Shown here: piece by piece, positions 17,089-48,023 of the stretch
Layout: each line of letters starts with the position of its first letter
Numbering within the stretch: the first letter of the stretch is position 1
NCBI GenBank assembly: GCA_947646585.1
Contig: CANSHD010000001.1
Coordinates: 248,617 to 312,616, forward strand
Direction: 5' to 3'
Length of the DNA: 64,000 bases
From: an uncultured Alphaproteobacteria bacterium
GTDB lineage: Bacteria > Pseudomonadota > Alphaproteobacteria > Rs-D84
The notes under the pieces: model-generated
The model's database searches: none
The model's input: only the letters and a program-made list of their open reading frames with translations
What the model was told of the DNA's origin: nothing
Translations under genes and position numbers: made by a program

Positions 17089-17158
17089 TCCCAATGCATC
17101 GGGTGATACCCGGTGTGAGGTGTCATAACCTCTGAAAACATTAAAACTCCACGATTGG

Positions 17159-17169
17159 TTGGAGGCCTG
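17159..17169. repeat. direct repeat TTGGAGGCCTG = copy of tRNA-Cys 3' end (putative att site of a mini-island)
   Basis: identical 11-mer at 17569-17579, which is the acceptor/CCA end of tRNA-Cys. Confidence 0.6.
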
Positions 17170-17259
17170 TGATATATTTGAATAAACAGGACTATCGTTT
17201 TCGTAGTTATGAACCTCCAACCGCCCTTCATCAAGGCGGTGTTTTTAATTTAAAAACAA

Positions 17260-17538
17260 ATGGAGGCAAAAATGAAAAGAATAGATGAAACGGCCGGCCG
17301 TATTGGTGCGGCAATGCGGCACGCCAGAAACACATGTCACCTGCATCAGGATGACATGGCGGTGCTGTTGCGGATAACGCCGGCCGAGCTATACGCATAT
17401 GAGCGCGGTACATTAAAGATACCCCAGGACGTGCTGGAACGGGTTATTCTGATGGGCTTTAAGATGATACACGTACACAGGCTGGAGCGCCTGTACCGAT
17501 GGCGGCGGGATTTGTTTGAAAAATTAAACAACAATTAA
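17260..17538 (+). CDS. small XRE-family helix-turn-helix transcriptional regulator
   Basis: HTH-like segment DDMAVLLRITPAELYAYERGTLKIP; 92 aa; lies inside the DR-bounded segment beside tRNA-Cys. Confidence 0.5.
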   Translation: MEAKMKRIDETAGRIGAAMRHARNTCHLHQDDMAVLLRITPAELYAYERGTLKIPQDVLERVILMGFKMIHVHRLERLYRWRRDLFEKLNNN

Positions 17539-17743: not shown

Positions 17744-19084
17744 ATGAAAAAAATAGCTTTATTGGCATGCGTAATGCCTTTTTCGGCGTGGGCTGCAAAC
17801 GATTGTTTGAACCGCCAGACGGTGCCGGACGGCCCGATGTCACTGCAAGAGGTAATAGAGTTGGGACTGTGCCGCAATCCGACAACTACATCCGCATATT
17901 TGGCGGCCGAATCCGCCCGATTTGCGAAAAATGCGGGCTATGCGAACTATTTGCCCAGTGTTAACGCCGGGGCCAGTGCCGGTATTGATTACCGCAACAA
18001 GGAATGGGGTGACTGGAATTATGGCGCGTCGTTGTCGGCGTCTTATTTGATATTTGATTTTGGAAAGCGCTTGGCCGACCTGAATGCATTGGCGGCGACG
18101 TGGCGTGCAACCGGTTTTGATTATGACGAAAGCGTTCAGAATTACGTTTATGGTGTTATCGGTGCGTATTATGCATTGTTGAATGCAGACGCGGACGTGA
18201 CGTCGGCGGAAAAACTGCGCGAGGTGGCGCAGTCCGCGCGCGACATGGCGCAAAAGAAGTACAAGGCGGGTTCTGTCGCCAAGGCCGATGTGCTGAAGGC
18301 GGACACAACCCTGGCCAGTCGTGACGTCGCACTGGAACGTGCAAAAAACAACCGCGAGATTGCAAAGGGCACCCTGCTCTCAAAATTGTCTTTCCCGGCG
18401 GACCAGAACATAGAGATTATGGACATGCCGTCCGATTTCGGACGCAGCACGGAAAACAAGAGCGTTGACGAGTTAATAGAGGCCGCGCGCAAATCCCGCC
18501 CGGATTTGCTGCGTGCGACTGCGAACAAGGACGCCGCATGGCATCGCCGCAACAGTGCGTTTTTAAAAAATCTGCCGAGTATTTCGGCCACGGGCTCCAT
18601 TAACTGGAACGACACGGAATGGAATTCGTTCGCCAACGACAGCTACAAGGTGACGGGCAGCGTCGGTATCCGCGCATCCATGCCGATATTTGCGGGCTTT
18701 GCCAATTATTACGGCGTCCGCAGTGCCGAGGCGAACTATGACCGTGCCAAAGAGTCTGAGCGCGCCGCCGCAGATAACGCCGTTTTAGATATCTTTACGG
18801 CATACCAGAACTATAAAACCGCACAAAAGGTTTTATCGCAGACTGAAACGCTGCTTAAATCCGCGACCGAAAGTGAAAAGGTAACCGCCGGTATGTACAA
18901 GGTGGGGCGGGCGACCATGCTGGACTGGCAGACGGCGCAGTCCGAACTGGTTGACGCGCAAAAGCAGCATAATGCGGCCAAATACGATTTGTTTACCAGC
19001 CGCGCGTCGGTTGCGCTGGCCATCGGCGACATAAAGGCCGAACTGGATAAAGAGAGGGAGAAAAACAATGAAAAGCAAGATTAA
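17744..19084 (+). CDS. tolC: TolC-family outer membrane efflux protein (outer membrane factor)
   Basis: signal peptide MKKIALLACVMPFSAWA; duplicated OEP repeats with ..QKKYKAGSVAKADVL.. and ..YKVGRATMLDWQTAQSEL.. Confidence 0.8.
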   Translation: MKKIALLACVMPFSAWAANDCLNRQTVPDGPMSLQEVIELGLCRNPTTTSAYLAAESARFAKNAGYANYLPSVNAGASAGIDYRNKEWGDWNYGASLSASYLIFDFGKRLADLNALAATWRATGFDYDESVQNYVYGVIGAYYALLNADADVTSAEKLREVAQSARDMAQKKYKAGSVAKADVLKADTTLASRDVALERAKNNREIAKGTLLSKLSFPADQNIEIMDMPSDFGRSTENKSVDELIEAARKSRPDLLRATANKDAAWHRRNSAFLKNLPSISATGSINWNDTEWNSFANDSYKVTGSVGIRASMPIFAGFANYYGVRSAEANYDRAKESERAAADNAVLDIFTAYQNYKTAQKVLSQTETLLKSATESEKVTAGMYKVGRATMLDWQTAQSELVDAQKQHNAAKYDLFTSRASVALAIGDIKAELDKEREKNNEKQD

Positions 19085-20243
19085 ATCCTTAATCAAATGG
19101 GTTTGGCGTAAAAAGTGGTGGTTTTTGATTTTGGCTGTGGTAATTGTTGTCCCGATGCTGATATTCGGCGGCGGCAAATCCAAAAAATCCGAATATGTTA
19201 CATTGCAAATCGGGCGCGGTAACCTGCGCCAGGTTGTGACGGCCACCGGCGAGATTCAGCCTGTGAACACGGTCAGCGTCGGCTCCCAGGTGTCGGGAAC
19301 GATTGACGCGCTGTACGTCGATTATAATTCCAAGGTAAAAAAGGGCGACCTGTTGTTAACGATAGAGCCGTCGGTATTGCAAGCGTCCGTGGACGAGGCC
19401 AAGGCGTCCCTTGATTCCGCGATTTCCCAGCGTAATTATGCGCAAAACGAATATAAACGAAACAAGGAATTGTATGCGTCCGATTTTATTGCGCGCGCGG
19501 AACTGGAACAGTCGCAAACCACGTATGAACAGGCCGAGCAGTCTGTAAAACGCGCCCAGTCGCAATATGACCGCGCGGTGACGAATCTGGGCTATGCAAC
19601 GATTACGTCCCCGGTTGACGGGACCGTTATTTCGCGCAAGGTTGACAAGGGCCAGACGGTCGCGGCATCTTTCCAGACGCCCGATTTGTTTGAAATTGCC
19701 GAAGATTTGACGCGCATGCAGATTGAAACGTCCGTATCGGAGGCCGACATCGGCGTCATCAAAGAAGGCCAGGCGGTGACGTTCACCGTCGATGCGTATC
19801 CGACCCAGACGTTCGATGGCGTCGTGCGCCAGATTCGCCTGTCGCCGACAACAACGTCAAACGTTGTCGTTTATACGGTTGTAATCGACGTTGACAACAC
19901 GGATTTGCGCTTGATGCCGGGTATGACCGCGTTTGTGACGATTATCGTTTCTGAAAAGAACGACGTATGGAAAGTGCAGAACGCCGCCCTGCTTGTTCGT
20001 TCGTTCGACGGAATTATCGAGAATGCGGGCGATGCAACGCCGAAGACCCATCTGGCGATAAAGCGTGGCGAGGAAATCAGTCTGGTACCGTATGAAAAGG
20101 GGCTGGTAACCGCGACGGAAACGGAAATCATATCCGACGGCATTGCAGAGGGCGACCTTATCGTCGTCGGCAAGGTCGGCCAGGCGTCAAGCGCCAAATC
20201 CGGCAACAATCAGCAGCGTCGCGGCCCCGGCGGCCCAATGTAA
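19068..20243 (+). CDS. macA: HlyD/MacA-family periplasmic adaptor (membrane fusion protein)
   Basis: N-terminal TM, coiled coil, lipoyl/beta-barrel motifs (TGEIQPVNTVSVGSQVSGTI, ITSPVDGTVISRKV). Confidence 0.85.
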   Translation: MKSKIKSLIKWVWRKKWWFLILAVVIVVPMLIFGGGKSKKSEYVTLQIGRGNLRQVVTATGEIQPVNTVSVGSQVSGTIDALYVDYNSKVKKGDLLLTIEPSVLQASVDEAKASLDSAISQRNYAQNEYKRNKELYASDFIARAELEQSQTTYEQAEQSVKRAQSQYDRAVTNLGYATITSPVDGTVISRKVDKGQTVAASFQTPDLFEIAEDLTRMQIETSVSEADIGVIKEGQAVTFTVDAYPTQTFDGVVRQIRLSPTTTSNVVVYTVVIDVDNTDLRLMPGMTAFVTIIVSEKNDVWKVQNAALLVRSFDGIIENAGDATPKTHLAIKRGEEISLVPYEKGLVTATETEIISDGIAEGDLIVVGKVGQASSAKSGNNQQRRGPGGPM

Positions 20244-21022
20244 TGGGGGCGATAATGAAAAAGGCGCAGACGGCAAAAAAGCCGGAGACGATAATATCTC
20301 TAAAAGATATAACAAAAAAGTTCCCCTTGGAAATGGGGGGCGAGCAGCAGGTTCTGTTCGACATAACATTTGACGTTCATGCCGGCGAATTTGTTGCGGT
20401 CATGGGCCCGTCGGGCAGTGGCAAATCCACATGCATGAACATAATCGGCGCGCTGGACACGCCGTCGGGCGGCACGTATGAACTATACGGGCGGAATATT
20501 ACCGGCCTGTCGCCGGACGAACTGGCCGTGATTCGAAACGAATATATCGGATTTGTTTTTCAGCAGTTTAATCTGCTCTCAAAGCGCACGGTGCTGGACA
20601 ACGTTATGCTGCCGCTGATGTATCGCGGTCTGCCCATGTCCGAACGCGTGCGGCGTGCGCGCGAAATGCTGCGCCGCGTGGGGCTGGAAAAATTCGAAAG
20701 TTACCTGCCGACGCAGCTCTCGGGCGGTATGAAGCAGCGCGTGGCGATTGCGCGCGCGCTTGCGGGCGACCCGAAACTGATTCTGGCGGACGAACCGACC
20801 GGCGCGCTGGACAGTAAAATGGGGAACGAAATTCTGAAATTTTTAAAGGAACTGAACAAGACCCAGGGCATCACGATTGTAATGATAACCCACGAGTTTG
20901 AAATTGCGCGTTATGCAAACCGCCTTATCCATATTTACGACGGTCATATAACGTATGACGGACCGGTTCCGAATACAGAGGCGGCGCTGATAAAATCTGA
21001 ATCCAAAGGACGCAAGAAATGA
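20243..21022 (+). CDS. macB: MacB/LolD-type ABC transporter ATP-binding protein
   Basis: Walker A VMGPSGSGKST; signature LSGGMKQRVAIARAL; Walker B LILADEPTGALD; alternative start at 20255. Confidence 0.9.
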   Translation: MGAIMKKAQTAKKPETIISLKDITKKFPLEMGGEQQVLFDITFDVHAGEFVAVMGPSGSGKSTCMNIIGALDTPSGGTYELYGRNITGLSPDELAVIRNEYIGFVFQQFNLLSKRTVLDNVMLPLMYRGLPMSERVRRAREMLRRVGLEKFESYLPTQLSGGMKQRVAIARALAGDPKLILADEPTGALDSKMGNEILKFLKELNKTQGITIVMITHEFEIARYANRLIHIYDGHITYDGPVPNTEAALIKSESKGRKK

Positions 21023-22236
21023 CCTTTAACGATATTTTCAAGGAATCATGGCTGTCGGTGTCCGGGAACAAAATGCGCTCGTTTTTGACGGTTCTGGGTA
21101 TTGTTATCGGTGTTATGGCGGTGGTTATAATGGTTGCCGTCGGCGAAACGGTCGAGCGCCAGATTACGGACCAGTTTTCGGCACTGGGCACCAATACGAT
21201 TATGATTCGCGCCGGCGCGGCCCAGACGGGCGGTGTTCGCACCGGAAACCGCCAGACGTTGACGATTGACGACGCGGAATATATCGGCCGCCTGCCCGAC
21301 GTTATGGCGGTGTCGCCGGTGCAAAGCAGCGGCGCTCAGATAGTATACGGAAACAAAAACTGGTCATCGGTTATGTACGGCGTATACCCCGATTATACGA
21401 CTGTTCAAAACATTGAAATGGACAAGGGTACGTTTTTTGACCAGGCGGCTGTTCGTAATGCGTCCACATACGCGGTAATCGGCCCCACGACGGCAAAAGA
21501 GCTGGACTTGCCCGCTGACCCCGTGGGCCAGGTAATCCGCGTCCAGAATGTTCCTTTTGTTATTATTGGCATGACCAAGGAAAAGGGCGATTCCGGAATG
21601 GGGTCCCAGGACGATATGTTGCTTGTACCGATTACCACGCTGAAAAAGCGCGTCCAGGGCAGTCGATTCCCCAACGCGGTCAGTACGATTGGCATGAAAC
21701 TGTACCCCGATGCGGACAACACCGTTGTCACGAATCAGATAACCGCCCTGTTGCGCGACCGTCATAAATTAAAGGACGACGCGGCCGACGACTTTCAAAT
21801 CATGGATATGAAACAGGTGATGGAGACGATGAGCACCGTCACCGGATACATGAAAATGCTGTTGATTGCGATTGCGGCGGTCTCGTTGCTGGTGGGCTCC
21901 ATCGGCATTATGAACATGATGCTGGTGTCCGTTGCGGAACGTACGCGTGAAATCGGCGTGCGCAAGGCCATCGGCGCGCGCGAGCGTCAGATAATCATTC
22001 AGTTCCTGTCCGAATCGATATTTATATCGTTTATCGGCTCTATGGCGGGATTGTTGCTGGGTGTCGGCCTGTCCCAGGGTGTGGGGCGCTTTATCATGGG
22101 CTATAACGTGCCGTTTTCGGCCTGGCCGGTTGTGCTATCGGTATCGGTTGCGGTAATTGTTGGCCTGGCGTCCGGTGTTATGCCTGCATTAAAGGCGGCA
22201 AAGCTGAACCCGATTGACAGTCTGCGCTATGAATAA
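21019..22236 (+). CDS. MacB/FtsX-type ABC transporter permease
   Basis: N-terminal TM + large periplasmic domain + C-terminal FtsX-like 3-TM bundle (..RKAIGARERQII..). Confidence 0.88.
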   Translation: MTFNDIFKESWLSVSGNKMRSFLTVLGIVIGVMAVVIMVAVGETVERQITDQFSALGTNTIMIRAGAAQTGGVRTGNRQTLTIDDAEYIGRLPDVMAVSPVQSSGAQIVYGNKNWSSVMYGVYPDYTTVQNIEMDKGTFFDQAAVRNASTYAVIGPTTAKELDLPADPVGQVIRVQNVPFVIIGMTKEKGDSGMGSQDDMLLVPITTLKKRVQGSRFPNAVSTIGMKLYPDADNTVVTNQITALLRDRHKLKDDAADDFQIMDMKQVMETMSTVTGYMKMLLIAIAAVSLLVGSIGIMNMMLVSVAERTREIGVRKAIGARERQIIIQFLSESIFISFIGSMAGLLLGVGLSQGVGRFIMGYNVPFSAWPVVLSVSVAVIVGLASGVMPALKAAKLNPIDSLRYE

Positions 22237-22268
22237 AAAACGGCGGATATTCCGCCGTTTTTATTTTA
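22237..22268. terminator. bidirectional terminator (macB permease / Cys-rich gene)
   Basis: aaaaaacggcggatattccgccgtttttatttt. Confidence 0.8.
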
Positions 22269-22773
22269 CATAATGACATTTGTCGGTGTATGTAAATCTG
22301 CCCCCGGCGTCTGTCCCGGTTGTCCCCGCCGGCAGATAGCATTCCGTTATTGATGCCGCGCCGGTTGAATCCGTCGTGCCGGCAACGCCGCCGGATCTCG
22401 GGCACGCGGTGCATGATGCGGCCGCGGCGGCATTGTTATATCTCCCCTGGGCGCATGGCTTGCATGACGTCAATGTGTTGTCCGCCGCCGAATAGTACCC
22501 CGCCCCGCACGCATTGCACGTGCATGTGGATGTATTGCCGCTGGATTTGTATCCGGCATTGCATTTGCATCGATATGATGTTGTCGCGGTCGGACAGCAG
22601 AGTGTCGTGGTGTTGATGCCGTCGCATTTGGGGCAGTGTTTTGATTGGCGCACGCCGTTGCTGATTGGGCTCCACATATCCATCCAGTCGTTGTTAAGTG
22701 CCGCCAATGCCGGGCATGCGTTCGGCCACGCCGCCGCGCCGATACATATGCATGTGATGATTGATTTTCTCAT
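22261..22773 (-). CDS. secreted cysteine-rich repeat protein (ephrin-receptor-like / GCC2_GCC3-like CxxCxxGxY...CxxCP units); paralog of 47228-47835
   Basis: signal peptide; ~20 Cys; C-terminal block CTACPRSGG..ITECYLPAGT..FTYTDKCHYVK aligns with CTRCPSSGG..ITSCYIPSGT..TYTGDCYYKN of 47557 ORF. Confidence 0.6.
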   Translation of the reverse strand: MRKSIITCICIGAAAWPNACPALAALNNDWMDMWSPISNGVRQSKHCPKCDGINTTTLCCPTATTSYRCKCNAGYKSSGNTSTCTCNACGAGYYSAADNTLTSCKPCAQGRYNNAAAAASCTACPRSGGVAGTTDSTGAASITECYLPAGTTGTDAGGRFTYTDKCHYVK

Positions 22774-22796
22774 GATTTCAATTCCCTTTTGTTTTT

Positions 22797-22827
22797 GTTA
22801 AACAAAAACCGCCGTTGGAATTGGCGG
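22797..22827 (-). terminator. hairpin + U-run in the 5' leader of the Cys-rich gene (attenuator-like)
   Basis: minus-strand ccgccaattccaacggcgg followed by tttttgttt; ~20 nt upstream of SD/ATG. Confidence 0.4.
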
Positions 22828-23111
22828 TCGGGGATTGAAAAAATCATATATAGAAATGACCCTGCGATTTTCGGGCGTGCCCTGTTGTATAATCGCAGAC
22901 CCCCGACCGGTTTGGTCGGGTTGCAAAAAACAGCGGTGCCAATGCACCGACGTTTTTAGTCGGATTTACAATGCAAACATGTGTTCGCACCGTCTCTATA
23001 AAGGATTTTTCAAGTCCCGAAGCCACATCCGTTGTGTCTTCGAACAAATTGTTGCAAACACGACACCTTTTTACAAGAAAAAACATTTGTGTATTGACAA
23101 AAAGATATTAT

Positions 23112-23140: not shown

Positions 23141-24133
23141 ATGAATTTTATGCCGATTTATCAAAAATATTTGGCGTGGCGCGACCGCCATTTCCCCATG
23201 GGGAACATACTGCGTCATACGCAGTATGTATTGGTGTTCAAAACAACAAATTATTGTTGGTACCGGTGCCCGCATTGCTGTGAATGTTCGGGGCCGAATA
23301 ATCCGCGGACATTTATTCCGGTCCGTACCATATGCTCTTATTTGGACCAGGCGCATGCCGACCCGTCATTTTCAAACAACGTTGTGTTTACAGGCGGGGA
23401 AATCATGTCGGCATACCGCTTTGGGCCGGCCGATTACGTGCCGACATTATTGAATCACAGTCTGGATTTGGGCATCGGTACGGATATAAAGACCAATGCC
23501 GCATGGGTGCGCGCCGGATTTGGCGAGGGGATATTTCAGGATTTGCATCACGTAATATCGTCACATAAACCGTATTCGTTGCAGATATCGCTGTCGCTGG
23601 ACAGGTATCATAAAAATGCGTTGGAAAACAACGCCGCGGTGATATCGCGCCTGGCCAAAATGCCAAACACAAACGCCATCGTCCATGTATCCGGATTTAA
23701 TAACCATGTTGACATGTTTCCGGCATTGTTGGAGCGGATTAAAGCAAACGGTCTGAAAATAGATGAGGTTTTATGCGGCTCTGCTGGAAAAATTTTACCG
23801 CGTGTCGGCGGCCGGATTTTGTTGCAGTATTCAAAGGGAACGCTGTTTGACGGCGGGCGTGCGCGCGACATGGAATGGGCGCATCATTCGGAATTTCCGC
23901 AGTTTCAGTTTTTAACCGCCGACGGCATGTCTTTGATTGCGTTTGACAGCGCGGGTCGTGTAACGCTTGGCGAAAATTCAGGCCGCAAAATATCGACATC
24001 TTTTTTGATGCGTAAGAATTTTAATGTATATCTGAAAAATTTGTATCATATTCGCGCCGATTTGGTTAAGGCCACATGGCGCGAGGAGACGCGCGCCCGC
24101 CTGCTGGATGGCTGGCGTTTTAACGAGCGATAA
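23141..24133 (+). CDS. radical SAM domain protein of unknown function (no SPASM/twitch Cys cluster)
   Basis: CxxxCxxC at TTNYCWYRCPHCC; glycine-rich SAM motif VVFTGGE; IKTNA motif; 330 aa. Confidence 0.7.
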   Translation: MNFMPIYQKYLAWRDRHFPMGNILRHTQYVLVFKTTNYCWYRCPHCCECSGPNNPRTFIPVRTICSYLDQAHADPSFSNNVVFTGGEIMSAYRFGPADYVPTLLNHSLDLGIGTDIKTNAAWVRAGFGEGIFQDLHHVISSHKPYSLQISLSLDRYHKNALENNAAVISRLAKMPNTNAIVHVSGFNNHVDMFPALLERIKANGLKIDEVLCGSAGKILPRVGGRILLQYSKGTLFDGGRARDMEWAHHSEFPQFQFLTADGMSLIAFDSAGRVTLGENSGRKISTSFLMRKNFNVYLKNLYHIRADLVKATWREETRARLLDGWRFNER

Positions 24134-38591: not shown

Positions 38592-39155
38592 ATGAAACTG
38601 GTTCTGGTATCTTGTTGCGCGCCGTGCAGCGCGGGCGCAATAAAACAATTGGCGGACGGGCAAATCCCGGACGTCGATGATTTTGTCGTGCTGTTTTTCA
38701 ACCCGAATATTTTTCCTGCGTCCGAATATCAAAAGCGCATGGCGGAACAGATAAAATACTGTGACACGCTTGGCGTAAAACACGTGGAATTGGAATACGA
38801 CCACGCCGCATGGCGCGATGCGGTGGCGGGGCTGGAATCCGAACCCGAACGCGGTGCGCGGTGCAGTGCGTGTTTTGAGTTTCGTTTTGCACGCGCGGCC
38901 CGTTTCGCCCGTGAAAACGGTTATGATGCGGTGGCGTCGGTTCTGGGCGTGTCACGACATAAAGACCAGACCCAGGTTGACTGTGCGGCGTCCGCGGTAT
39001 GCGGTAACGTAAAATATTTACCGATAAAGTGGGACGAAGCGCTGCGTCAACAAATCGGCCGTGCATCCGACTTTTACCGCCAGAATTATTGCGGTTGTGA
39101 ATTTTCTATACGCAAAGCAGCGGCATTGATTCCGGATACCATTCAAACAGCGTGA
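38592..39155 (+). CDS. queH: epoxyqueuosine reductase QueH (DUF208)
   Basis: LVSCCAPCS motif and downstream Cys pairs (CSAC, CGC); 187 aa. Confidence 0.72.
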   Translation: MKLVLVSCCAPCSAGAIKQLADGQIPDVDDFVVLFFNPNIFPASEYQKRMAEQIKYCDTLGVKHVELEYDHAAWRDAVAGLESEPERGARCSACFEFRFARAARFARENGYDAVASVLGVSRHKDQTQVDCAASAVCGNVKYLPIKWDEALRQQIGRASDFYRQNYCGCEFSIRKAAALIPDTIQTA

Positions 39156-39548
39156 ATATCATTATTTGCTGATATACGCTTGGCTTTTTATTTTTTGCGA
39201 TAATTGAATTATATTCAGACTCGGTTTCCAAATCCATTGCATTGCACATAATGTATATCGGTATGTCGGCATGGATTCTGGCGGCCTCTATGCGTTGCCC
39301 GGTCAGCATCTGAATTCCCCCGTGATTTTATAAAGAAAAAACCATCGGAATAAAATTCAGATGGCTGGAGGTTCACTACTATAATCAGCTATAGCGTCGC
39401 TTATTCAATATATTCGCGACCCTCCAGCCAGTGGTTGGAGATTTTCTGTTTTTTACAAACAGGCTGAAAAGGGGTAGCGAACCCCGCCCACGGAATACCC
39501 GCCGGCAAATATATTATATATTGAATAAAAACAATTTGCAAATAATTA

Positions 39549-46944: not shown

Positions 46945-47051
46945 AAAATAACTGGCAAAAATTCTTACCATGCTATATACTTTTTATGTCGCGGCGTGTT
47001 GCCGTGATGAGGCCTGATAACCTCGTTTACATGCGTCGGAATAAGTACCTG

Positions 47052-47075
47052 TTGGCGCGGCGCGCCATTTTTATT
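47052..47075 (+). terminator. probable terminator downstream of nth
   Basis: tggcgcggcgcgcca palindrome followed by tttttatt. Confidence 0.5.
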
Positions 47076-47093
47076 ACGACGTTAAATATACAG

Positions 47094-47113
47094 CTCCTGA
47101 CCCGGGTCAGGAG
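47094..47113. promoter_or_regulatory. 20-bp perfect palindrome CTCCTGACCCGGGTCAGGAG upstream of the Cys-rich operon
   Basis: perfect dyad; CCTCCTGACC half repeated at 47164-47173. Confidence 0.45.
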
Positions 47114-47227
47114 GGTTGCGAATATATTGAATAAGCACGCAATTCATGTAAATTGTTATCAGCCTCCTGACCACCAAAATTTGGTGGTTTTTTGTTTCAC
47201 ACAAACAAAAACCAAGGAGGTTTGAAA

Positions 47228-47560
47228 ATGAAACGTCTTTTAGCCATCGGAGCTTTTCTTATCCCGATATCGGGGGCGGATGCGGCTTTTGTATTGTGTC
47301 AGGACTCGTCATCGTGCATTAAGCTCACAACAACGGCCAAGCCGTATTGCTGCAAATCGGGAACCGCAAAAACATGTCCGTACGGATGGATCGCATCGGG
47401 CAGCACATGCACACGTGCCAGCACCACAGGCAGCGATACATACGGATATTATACCCAGACATATGGCACCTGTGCCGCGACCGAGAAACAGTGCTACGAG
47501 GCCAGCAGCAACGGCTACAATTCAGATGGAACCGCATGTTTTAGGAGGGTAGATATATGA
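47228..47560 (+). CDS. secreted cysteine-rich protein (paralog family with 22261-22773 and 47557-47835)
   Basis: SD aaggagg 8 nt upstream; signal peptide MKRLLAIGAFLIPISGADA; 13 Cys, T/G/S/Y-rich; CC..G....C..G[YW] pattern shared with 22261 ORF. Confidence 0.55.
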   Translation: MKRLLAIGAFLIPISGADAAFVLCQDSSSCIKLTTTAKPYCCKSGTAKTCPYGWIASGSTCTRASTTGSDTYGYYTQTYGTCAATEKQCYEASSNGYNSDGTACFRRVDI

Positions 47561-47835
47561 AAAAGATAATCCTTGTCGCGGTCGTAGTGTCTGTAATGGC
47601 GCCACAGTGTTACGCGGCCTGTACGGCGAACGCAAAAACATACACCGCATGCAAGCCGGGATATTATTTGAATAGTGGCAAATGTACCCGCTGTCCATCC
47701 TCCGGCGGAACATATAGGACGACTGTTGATAATAACACCGGCGGCATAACGTCATGTTATATCCCGTCCGGAACGTCTTTTTCCGACACGTCCGGCGCCG
47801 GGACATATACCGGAGATTGTTATTATAAAAATTGA
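47557..47835 (+). CDS. secreted cysteine-rich ephrin-receptor-like repeat protein
   Basis: ATGA overlap with upstream ORF; signal peptide; CKPGYYLNSGKCTRCPSSGGTYRT..SCYIPSGT..CYYKN aligns with C-terminus of 22261 ORF. Confidence 0.6.
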   Translation: MKKIILVAVVVSVMAPQCYAACTANAKTYTACKPGYYLNSGKCTRCPSSGGTYRTTVDNNTGGITSCYIPSGTSFSDTSGAGTYTGDCYYKN

Positions 47836-47866
47836 ATCAAAGCCCCGACCGGGGCTTGATTTTATA
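47836..47866 (+). terminator. rho-independent terminator after the Cys-rich operon
   Basis: atcaaagccccgaccggggcttgatttt. Confidence 0.8.
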
Positions 47867-48023
47867 ACCTAATCATATATCCGCATGCCAGTATGGCGAT
47901 AACCGTTACCGCGAATACAACCCGGTTTGACGCCGACAATGTACAATGCGGTAAACAAAGGGCTGTTTTCCTTAGGCATATGTTTTTAGCTCTCTTATAG
48001 CATAAATCACGCTTTTTTCAAAT

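Follow-up and report, generated by a model that had tools for sequence, protein, structure and literature searches.

Two families of small cysteine-rich proteins with predicted export signals and a common structured 5' leader in an uncultured Rs-D84 alphaproteobacterium

What are the small, cysteine-rich proteins that an uncultured alphaproteobacterium encodes as a tandem pair next to pheT, and what might they do? The question arises from a stretch of 64,000 nucleotides of the GTDB lineage Rs-D84 (assembly GCA_947646585.1, contig CANSHD010000001.1, positions 248,617 to 312,616), hereafter the window, in which an initial annotation had marked three open reading frames (ORFs) as a paralogous family of secreted, ephrin-receptor-like proteins. 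Two of these form an operon on the plus strand, gene A (47228..47560, 110 amino acids, 9 cysteines) and gene B (47557..47835, 92 amino acids, 7 cysteines, 6 of them in the mature part), flanked by ileS-nth upstream and pheT downstream, and the third, gene C (22261..22773, 170 amino acids, 18 cysteines), lies on the minus strand. All three ORFs exist as annotated and each begins with a predicted signal peptide, the counts given here replacing the 13 to 20 cysteines first credited to each protein. The reading favoured here, with moderate confidence, is that A, B and C are binding proteins exported by Sec, probably stabilised by disulfides and subject to diversifying selection, with A and B co-expressed, and that a structured 5' leader gates their expression.

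Two cysteine-rich families and an obligate gene pair

Sequence comparison places B and C in one homologous family, with C as the longer paralogue of B, and assigns A to a separate cysteine-rich family. B and C align over their C-terminal 74 residues with 43% identity (BLASTP E=1e-12), whereas A matches neither of them significantly (E=0.10 against B, E=4.9 against C), and A as a paralogue of B and C was rejected on this ground. Profile-profile comparison of the A alignment with the B alignment left a link of only 21 columns, CPxG[WY]..C.R..SG, at 92% probability. A as a relative of C failed on two further counts: hhalign of the A alignment against the alignment of long C-type proteins paired the signal peptides only, and a hidden Markov model (HMM) of mature A scored no higher on 97 long C-type proteins than on reversed sequences, the lone exception being P0052, a frameshifted A read into B. 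The three-member family of the initial annotation thus resolves into two B/C members and one protein of another family, and the C-terminal block described as common to all three is shared by B and C but not by A.

Gene C encodes a variable N-terminal cysteine-rich region followed by ephrin-receptor-like repeats and then by the same C-terminal module as in B, while B is the minimal member of the family, consisting of a single CxxGYY...CxRCP hairpin unit and the tail SGG..IT.CY[IL]P.GT..SD..G..TYT..CYY; the motif of A reads CC..TCPxGW...C.R..TxGSD..GYYTQxYGTC. Protein C matches Pfam PF07699 (Ephrin_rec_like) with 35.4 bits (E=9e-9) over residues 92-145 and profile positions 1-48 of 48, the gathering cutoff being 23.1 bits. 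B does not match PF07699 even at E<=10 and is linked to it solely via its homology to C, and A matches no Pfam family at E<=10. None of the three matches PF00020 (TNFR_c6) at E<=10, and none is matched by PF03302 (VSP) or by any NCBIfam family. In the PDB, the best sequence match of C is the Chlamydomonas mastigoneme protein Mst1 (8tx1), annotated as ephrin-receptor-like (E=0.012), that of the B profile is TNFRSF11B (E=0.06, marginal), and A gives chance-level matches only; the Foldseek list consists mostly of TNFR Cys-rich domains, with no significant structure score. These weak sequence and fold matches all belong to one class of cysteine-rich domains (mastigoneme Mst1, TNFRs, EphB2, ELAPOR1). 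AlphaFold2, run on C with an alignment of 65 sequences, models residues ~111-170 with predicted local distance difference test (pLDDT) scores of 83-97 and the N-terminal half below 70. Among the 65 long relatives, 9 match PF07699 at E<=1e-3, one matches the Giardia VSP model (E=1e-6) and one a TNFR-like ELAPOR1 model. The CxxCxxGYY...CxxCP spacing that had been read as an ephrin-receptor/TNFR repeat is therefore borne out directly for C and by homology for B, and the label is justified for these two and not for A. The B/C family, which is very large and diversifies rapidly, appears, from these matches, to be built of ephrin-receptor/TNFR-type cysteine-rich hairpin repeats ending in a conserved, six-cysteine module of ~65 residues; it is a lineage-specific branch of a known kind of domain, and A is a family without known relatives.

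B has 30 homologous clusters (40-83% identity), C three and A only two close ones. A B/C profile run against 1.84 billion cluster representatives found at least 1,163 matches at E<=1e-3 and 246 at E<=1e-10; among the 150 matches listed, almost all are 80-400 amino acids long and the module usually stands at the extreme C-terminus. Species-representative genomes contain 30 loci, with up to five B/C-family matches from one metagenome-assembled genome (MAG), and 29 of the loci are titled (Alpha)proteobacteria, Rickettsiales or Ca. Enterousia. Every B/C member that can be traced to a genome comes from gut Alphaproteobacteria MAGs with reduced genomes, of the Candidatus Enterousia type or its relatives. 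Ca. Enterousia has been placed in the order Rs-D84, whose genomes of <1 Mb are without the tricarboxylic acid (TCA) cycle, respiratory chains and standard transporters and for which a partner-dependent lifestyle has been proposed (PMC12306168). The remaining locus (L020; OZ246409.1, a complete chromosome of 716,531 bp) carries a B-type gene under the title 'uncultured Muribaculaceae', which is suspected to be a mislabel in view of where the family otherwise occurs and of the size of the genome; among short B genes, this one alone lacks a detected A-type ORF upstream. A phage origin was rejected, since no relatives were found in viral contigs.

The pairing of A with B extends well beyond the window. 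As first annotated, an ATGA overlap joins the end of A to the start of B, which indicates translational coupling, and an AGGAGG-type Shine-Dalgarno (SD) sequence precedes the start codon of each gene by 7-8 nt; a terminator-like hairpin followed by a T-run closes the operon (47840..47857, plus strand). At no fewer than three unrelated genomic sites (ileS-nth/pheT, a DNA-repair-type gene/amidase, and BamD/dcd) homologues of B are preceded by a small ORF without a Pfam family, and these upstream ORFs align with A at nine invariant positions, six of them cysteines, around the motif TCPxGW...C.R..TxGSD..GYYTQxYGTC. The alignment of A comprises 18 sequences with invariant cysteines, and a B-type ORF lies immediately downstream of 21 of 22 distinct A-type ORFs, so that short B genes have in A an obligate partner in the genome, one that always stands upstream of them. 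A diverges much faster than B, the identity to the window protein ranging over 30-58% for A orthologues and 51-68% for B orthologues at the same kind of loci, and this divergence explains why word-based searches find few relatives of A. The conservation that the initial annotation had left to be checked is present in both genes, with the 30 clusters of B and 17 aligned relatives of A that retain its cysteines; A-B is a genuine, conserved operon, and the ORFs are real and conserved beyond chance. Two apparent natural fusions, P0052 and P0050, were considered as evidence of interaction between A and B and discarded as artefacts, each being a frameshifted A read through into B with the signal peptide of B kept internally.

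Export is predicted from the N-termini, which in A, B and C look like Sec-type signal peptides with two positive charges, a hydrophobic core and AxA-like sites, features that were scored by our own heuristic rather than by SignalP. The signal peptides claimed for all three proteins are borne out in this way, and the same heuristic finds Sec-type N-termini throughout the relatives of both families (33/33, 18/18 and 56/65 sequences in three alignments). In the B family the first mature cysteine follows A, D or E, with no L, V or I at position -3 (B itself reads ..QCYA before the predicted cut and AC after it), which fits AxA sites of signal peptidase I and not a lipobox; the lipobox pattern [LVI][ASTVI][GAS]C was found at the signal-peptide end neither in B nor across its family. 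None of the window proteins has a hydrophobic tail, their last residues being CYYKN, CHYVK or RRVDI. These features support the view that A, B and C are exported, cysteine-rich proteins. The C-terminal module was considered as a sorting signal and rejected, as it is N-terminal in P0049, P0062 and P0177 and as P0036 matches the module profile in five stretches.

Comparison with near-identical strains gives a strong signal of diversifying selection on A, B and C. Between the window and contig L159 the leader of the operon is identical (0/119 nt differ), A has accumulated 11 nonsynonymous and 0 synonymous changes and B 2 and 0, set against 40 nonsynonymous and 119 synonymous changes in the adjoining pheT (dN/dS 0.09) and a dN/dS of 0.06 in pheS; the classes of change in A and pheT differ with Fisher p=8e-7. 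Between the window and L162, gene C carries 17.5 nonsynonymous and 0.5 synonymous changes (dN 0.046, dS 0.004), and differences are concentrated in the gene itself, with 18 in 513 nt compared with ~5 in 1,300 aligned nt of its flanks (p=8e-7). Taken over the three genes, 30 of 31 changes fall at codon positions 1-2, the neutral probability of at most one synonymous change among the 31 being 0.003, and not one of them touches a cysteine; in C, 11 of 17 replacements sit in the N-terminal variable part. In further comparisons dN/dS is 0.49 for A (L160/L161), 0.15 for B (L161) and 0.10 for pheT (L160). Mutagenesis by a diversity-generating retroelement was considered and is unlikely, because the 31 changes are of mixed types, among them A>G, C>A, G>C and C>T; no reverse transcriptase was seen among the flanking genes scanned, the window as a whole not having been systematically searched for one.

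The structured leader

A conserved non-coding stretch of ~135-150 nt was first seen when the regions upstream of A and C were read, and was then followed with nhmmer and with a covariance model, R1; by these two means it is found upstream of almost all the A-B pairs and C-type genes examined. R1 has 41 matches, four of them inside the window. The type I leader of A-B (47092..47230, plus strand) scores 112.8 bits (E=3e-26) with a fold z-score of -4.5, and the type II leader of C (22771..22924, minus strand), which has the same architecture, 91.2 bits with a fold z-score of -3.9. From 5' to 3' the leader consists of a strand S5, a strand S3, a helix P2 with a conserved loop, a hairpin P3, an anti-SD (aSD) strand and a hairpin P4 followed by a U-run; a second, AU-rich hairpin and the SD then lead up to the AUG. 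In the A-B leader, all on the plus strand, S5 is the upstream strand CUCCUGACC (47094-47102) and S3 the middle strand GGUCAGGAGG (47105-47114), the helices P2/P3 occupy 47115-47156, the aSD strand CCUCCUGACC lies at 47163-47172 and the terminator-like hairpin P4 at 47170-47188 is followed by the U-run (a terminator-like site was found at 47169-47189), with the SD AGGAGG at 47215-47220 and the ATG at 47228.

The sequences of these strands suggest a switch. S5 varies from copy to copy (CUCCUGACC, CCCGACC or CUCCAACC), S3 is complementary to it, and aSD is a direct copy of S5, so that S3 may either pair with S5 in a local hairpin or pair with aSD, which closes a three-way junction and takes three base pairs off the terminator stem; the SD is complementary to aSD, or to S5. 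Over four sequence classes the alternative pairings covary, and the SD covaries with them (GGAGG, GGGGA, GGAAG or GGGC). In a plain MAFFT alignment 83% of cells are paired in both states, compared with 30-55% in slid controls, and the observed covariation was reached by 0 of 500 shuffles; in the model-fitted alignment of 40 distinct sequences, which is biased towards its own structure, 87.6% of cells are paired compared with 27-55% in slid controls, covariation is 0.41 compared with at most 0.11, and double changes occur at 18 of 24 pairs. The alignments thus show that the leader has covarying, mutually exclusive helices, and constrained folding places the two predicted states ~1-6 kcal/mol apart. 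An upstream ORF within the leader was considered by reading the sequences and rejected: type II leaders keep the AUG but neither its reading frame nor the point where that frame stops, and in most type I leaders the position holds no AUG.

Two further copies lie in the window, one at 17145..17274 (plus strand, R1 81.8 bits) before an ORF of 88 amino acids (17272-17538, plus strand) and one at 39307..39442 (minus strand, 80.6 bits) before an ORF of 67 amino acids (39309-39106). The former ORF has a weak match of the helix-turn-helix (HTH)/XRE type (Pfam HTH_31, E=1.7e-5, under the cutoff), the latter (39106-39309, minus strand) is HTH-like by eye and unmatched by Pfam, and similar small ORFs stand behind many leader copies in metagenome contigs. 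These HTH-like ORFs could regulate the same set of genes that carries the leader. A metagenome scan with the type I loop pattern found at least 120 loci, from which 90 downstream ORFs were recovered, 5 of A type, 12 of B/C type and 73 others; by eye, the 73 include many small XRE-like proteins, other signal-peptide proteins, BRO-like proteins and an HsdM-like protein. Since most ORFs that follow the leader are of other types, it serves accessory genes across this clade as a general 5' element and is not specific to the cysteine-rich families. Contigs L159 and L161 begin within the leader, as expected of a repeated element that breaks assemblies. Just upstream of the leaders of A-B (~47046-47091, plus strand) and C (~22925-22963, minus strand) stands a hairpin rich in GC (GGCGC..GCGCC), accompanied by a T-run and by a box resembling TATTAC/TATATT, and the same arrangement recurs upstream of most leader copies at other loci; it could work as an insulating terminator, or else as a promoter or operator.

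Rfam at gathering thresholds found only tRNAs in the window, and the A-B (type I) leader remained unmatched even at E<=10. The leader of C comes closer, scoring 48.3 bits (E=8e-8, core 22908-22818) against RF02221, sRNA-Xcc1, below the gathering score of 53, and the cmscan alignment matches the closing helix, P2 with its internal hairpin, and P3; two other type II leaders, L002 (43.5 bits) and L013 (41.6 bits), also fall below 53. In Xanthomonas campestris, sRNA-Xcc1 is an 88-nt RNA on Northern blots (PMC2996969), and in Xanthomonas integron cassettes it lies upstream of the toxin gene symE (bioRxiv 10.1101/2025.06.18.660453). A bona fide copy (L158, 72.6 bits) on a Pseudomonas aeruginosa plasmid (NZ_CP093017, 1498-1580) stands 38 nt upstream of a BRO-family gene, and there R1 gives a weak match (15.2 bits, E=0.005) that is aligned through to the ATG of that gene.

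As for the surroundings of the three genes, a tripartite exporter operon of the TolC-MacA-MacB type (17744-22236, plus strand) converges on gene C and ends 24 nt from its 3' end. This adjacency occurs in the window only and is not kept at other loci of the family, and MacAB-TolC as a dedicated exporter was rejected for that reason. Divergent from gene C, an ORF of 330 amino acids (23141-24133, plus strand) contains a CxxxCxxC motif and has a weak radical-SAM match (E=0.004, under the Pfam cutoff); a link to radical-SAM modification of the kind that produces ribosomally synthesised and post-translationally modified peptides (RiPPs) is unlikely, given the weakness of the match and the absence of this ORF beside any other family member. 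Between B and pheT, on the minus strand at 47869-47979, lies a 36-codon remnant (MPKENSPLFTALYIVG...) of a gene for a small hydrophobic protein, whose counterpart is intact (~116 amino acids) at the same position in related contigs (L004, 5416-5766; L159, 846-1271).

Candidate roles of the proteins

In the reading favoured here, A, B and C would cross the inner membrane by the Sec pathway, be cut by signal peptidase I and fold as stacks of beta-hairpins braced by disulfides. Translational coupling would supply A and B in a fixed ratio, and the two would act jointly, probably as a heteromeric complex at the cell surface or in the medium. Residues exposed on these proteins would either bind an external partner or serve it as a recognition site, the candidates being host, partner cell, phage and antibody, and this contact would drive the diversifying selection, whose signal is strongest in A and in the N-terminal part of C. 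The sRNA-Xcc1-like 5' leader common to A-B and C would gate their expression, S3 pairing with either S5 or aSD and the latter pairing stripping the base of the terminator-like hairpin. A role in host interaction, as the initial annotation had proposed, is plausible, being consistent with the positive selection, with expansion in genomes of <1 Mb that are probably partner-dependent (PMC12306168) and with the export signals; a partner microbe, a phage or the immune system is an equally possible target.

Several points weigh against this reading. Its evidence consists of sequence and models, and we infer all of the following: export beyond the inner membrane, the disulfides, contact between A and B, and the external partner. 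The dN/dS evidence comes from three pairwise strain comparisons and not from a site model. Contact between A and B is read from gene linkage only, the sole apparent fusion being a frameshift artefact. The AlphaFold check proposed with the initial annotation, confident for the module of C, gave a poor and unusable model for B alone (pLDDT 52). The proteins show neither an anchor nor an outer-membrane signal, and no secretion-system gene was found to be conserved beside them. The clade is reported to be without respiratory chains (PMC12306168), so that a route to disulfide formation is not obvious; a motif scan of the window for Dsb genes found none, which in a 64-kb sample is uninformative. As for the leader, base pairing still covers the SD in the folds predicted for the A-B copy, for the copy at 17145..17274 and for state 1 of the C copy, so that the switch model leaves unexplained how translation is turned on.

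A bolder version of the favoured reading, which we regard as speculative and unlikely in its entirety, would make A-B and the C-type proteins an unrecognised adhesin or variable-coat system for attaching to, or hiding from, host or partner cells, in which ephrin-receptor/TNFR-like modules have diversified independently in bacteria and a cis-acting leader of the sRNA-Xcc1 class, possibly responsive to a ligand or protein, switches a regulon of accessory genes. Rs-D84/Enterousia are common uncultured gut bacteria with genomes of <1 Mb and no obvious way to feed themselves, and exported, receptor-like proteins in several copies, with strong positive selection and an obligate partner gene, are a concrete candidate for the interface with host or partner cells. 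Proteins A, B and C are defined and can be expressed and tested, and the covarying alternative helices of the leader yield specific predictions that can be tested as well.

The same observations may be read in other ways, each of them less well supported than exported binding proteins. The first takes the proteins as a variable surface coat, directed at host antibodies or phages rather than at ligands and analogous to the variant-specific surface proteins (VSPs) of Giardia. Hypervariable N-terminal cysteine-rich regions beside a conserved C-terminal module, many paralogues per genome and a dN much greater than dS all suit such a coat, as does the match of one long relative (1/65) to Pfam VSP, and the common leader could coordinate or restrict expression. 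The proteins are nonetheless without a membrane anchor, a lipobox or a known wall- or outer-membrane-binding domain, nothing points to exclusive expression of single copies or to recombination among them, the module stands at the N-terminus in P0049, P0062 and P0177 and its profile matches five stretches of P0036, and the window proteins themselves are unmatched by VSP. A coat seems unlikely overall.

Somewhat less likely again is that A and B form a two-component secreted toxin or bacteriocin, with C as a single-chain version, aimed at competitors or partner cells and selected in an arms race with receptors or immunity. Small, exported, cysteine-rich proteins, two of them encoded in tandem and made in a fixed ratio, would suit this role, as would the strong positive selection and the TolC-MacA-MacB exporter adjoining gene C. 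This kind of pump exports the heat-stable enterotoxin II of Escherichia coli. The related sRNA-Xcc1 is also found upstream of a toxin gene, symE, in Xanthomonas (bioRxiv 10.1101/2025.06.18.660453). Yet no immunity-like gene or dedicated transporter is conserved beside A-B in ~20 loci, the N-terminal leaders are of Sec type and not double-glycine, several paralogues are present per genome in genomes of <1 Mb, and no known toxin in Pfam, NCBIfam or the PDB is resembled. A two-peptide (class IIb-like) bacteriocin in particular is not indicated, the N-termini being Sec-type, the neighbours differing between loci and being housekeeping genes, and MacAB not being a conserved neighbour.

It is improbable that the proteins are periplasmic or envelope housekeeping components (structural, redox or metal-binding) whose cysteines serve metal or redox chemistry instead of a disulfide scaffold. 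A cysteine content of ~8-10% would fit such chemistry in an anaerobe reported to be without respiratory chains, where disulfides may be hard to make (PMC12306168), and no anchoring or secretion signal beyond Sec was found, but a dN much greater than dS and so much variation between strains are unexpected for envelope housekeeping proteins, the cysteine spacing is that of disulfide-bonded Ephrin_rec_like/TNFR repeats, and the family is lineage-specific and multi-copy. Least probable of all are mimics taken from eukaryotes by horizontal transfer to serve as decoy receptors for host ligands, for although PF07699 is held to have arisen in early eukaryotes, its rare bacterial cases being put down to transfer (PMC6993872), and the bacteria are gut-associated, the best solved eukaryotic match is marginal (E=0.012), B and A fall below all eukaryotic-family thresholds, viral contigs yielded no relatives, and more than 1,000 diverged clusters, the 150 listed being small proteins and every traced member bacterial, speak for a history that has long been independent. 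Nothing was found to indicate that the genes came from eukaryotes recently and, in the sense of acquired from eukaryotes, the term eukaryote-like in the initial annotation finds no support in so marginal a match and so deeply diversified a family.

Comparison with known systems

Among known proteins, those with PF07699 repeats (formerly GCC2_GCC3; Eph receptors, ELAPOR1, Mst1) stand closest. They share with the window family the spacing CxxCxxG-[YF]-[YF]...CxxCP-x-G, and both are cysteine-rich and extracytoplasmic, in the window proteins by predicted signal peptides. Unlike known PF07699 proteins, members of the window family are bacterial, tiny (90-400 amino acids) and apparently Sec-exported, and their last repeat is fused to a tail of their own, IT.CY[IL]P.GT..SD..G..TYT..CYY, which is absent from the Pfam model. 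The Cys-rich domains of TNFRs (TNFRSF11B, 4-1BB, CD40), elongated modules of beta-hairpins in a disulfide ladder, offer a likeness in predicted build, but PF00020 is unmatched, neither sequence nor structure scores are significant, and nothing in the window family indicates binding of a trimeric ligand. The VSPs of Giardia (PF03302) are similar in their CxxC/GYY-type repeats and in having many paralogues with a variable N-terminal and a conserved C-terminal part. VSPs of Giardia are expressed singly and end with a transmembrane helix plus a CRGKA tail, whereas the window proteins have no VSP-like tail and are unmatched by the VSP model.

The leader, in turn, is best compared with sRNA-Xcc1, of which it appears to be a distant and divergent relative in a cis-regulatory setting. 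The RF02221 model and the leader have in common a three-way junction whose closing helix is rich in GC, whose P2 has the loop AUACAA...GAA and whose P3 is a hairpin, and both are found near accessory genes, BRO-like ORFs following the leader in gut metagenome contigs as well. In contrast to the Rfam model, the leader includes a terminator-like hairpin, a covarying SD and an upstream duplicate of the 3' closing strand that would be able to compete with it. sRNA-Xcc1 has been described as a trans-acting small RNA, whereas the leader stands in cis before genes. The plasmid copy before a BRO-family gene and the BRO-like ORFs behind the leader suggest that sRNA-Xcc1 itself may generally be the 5' leader of mobile or accessory genes, and the leader shared by the window genes suggests that an RNA known only as a small RNA of Xanthomonas would belong to a wider class of structured 5' leaders.

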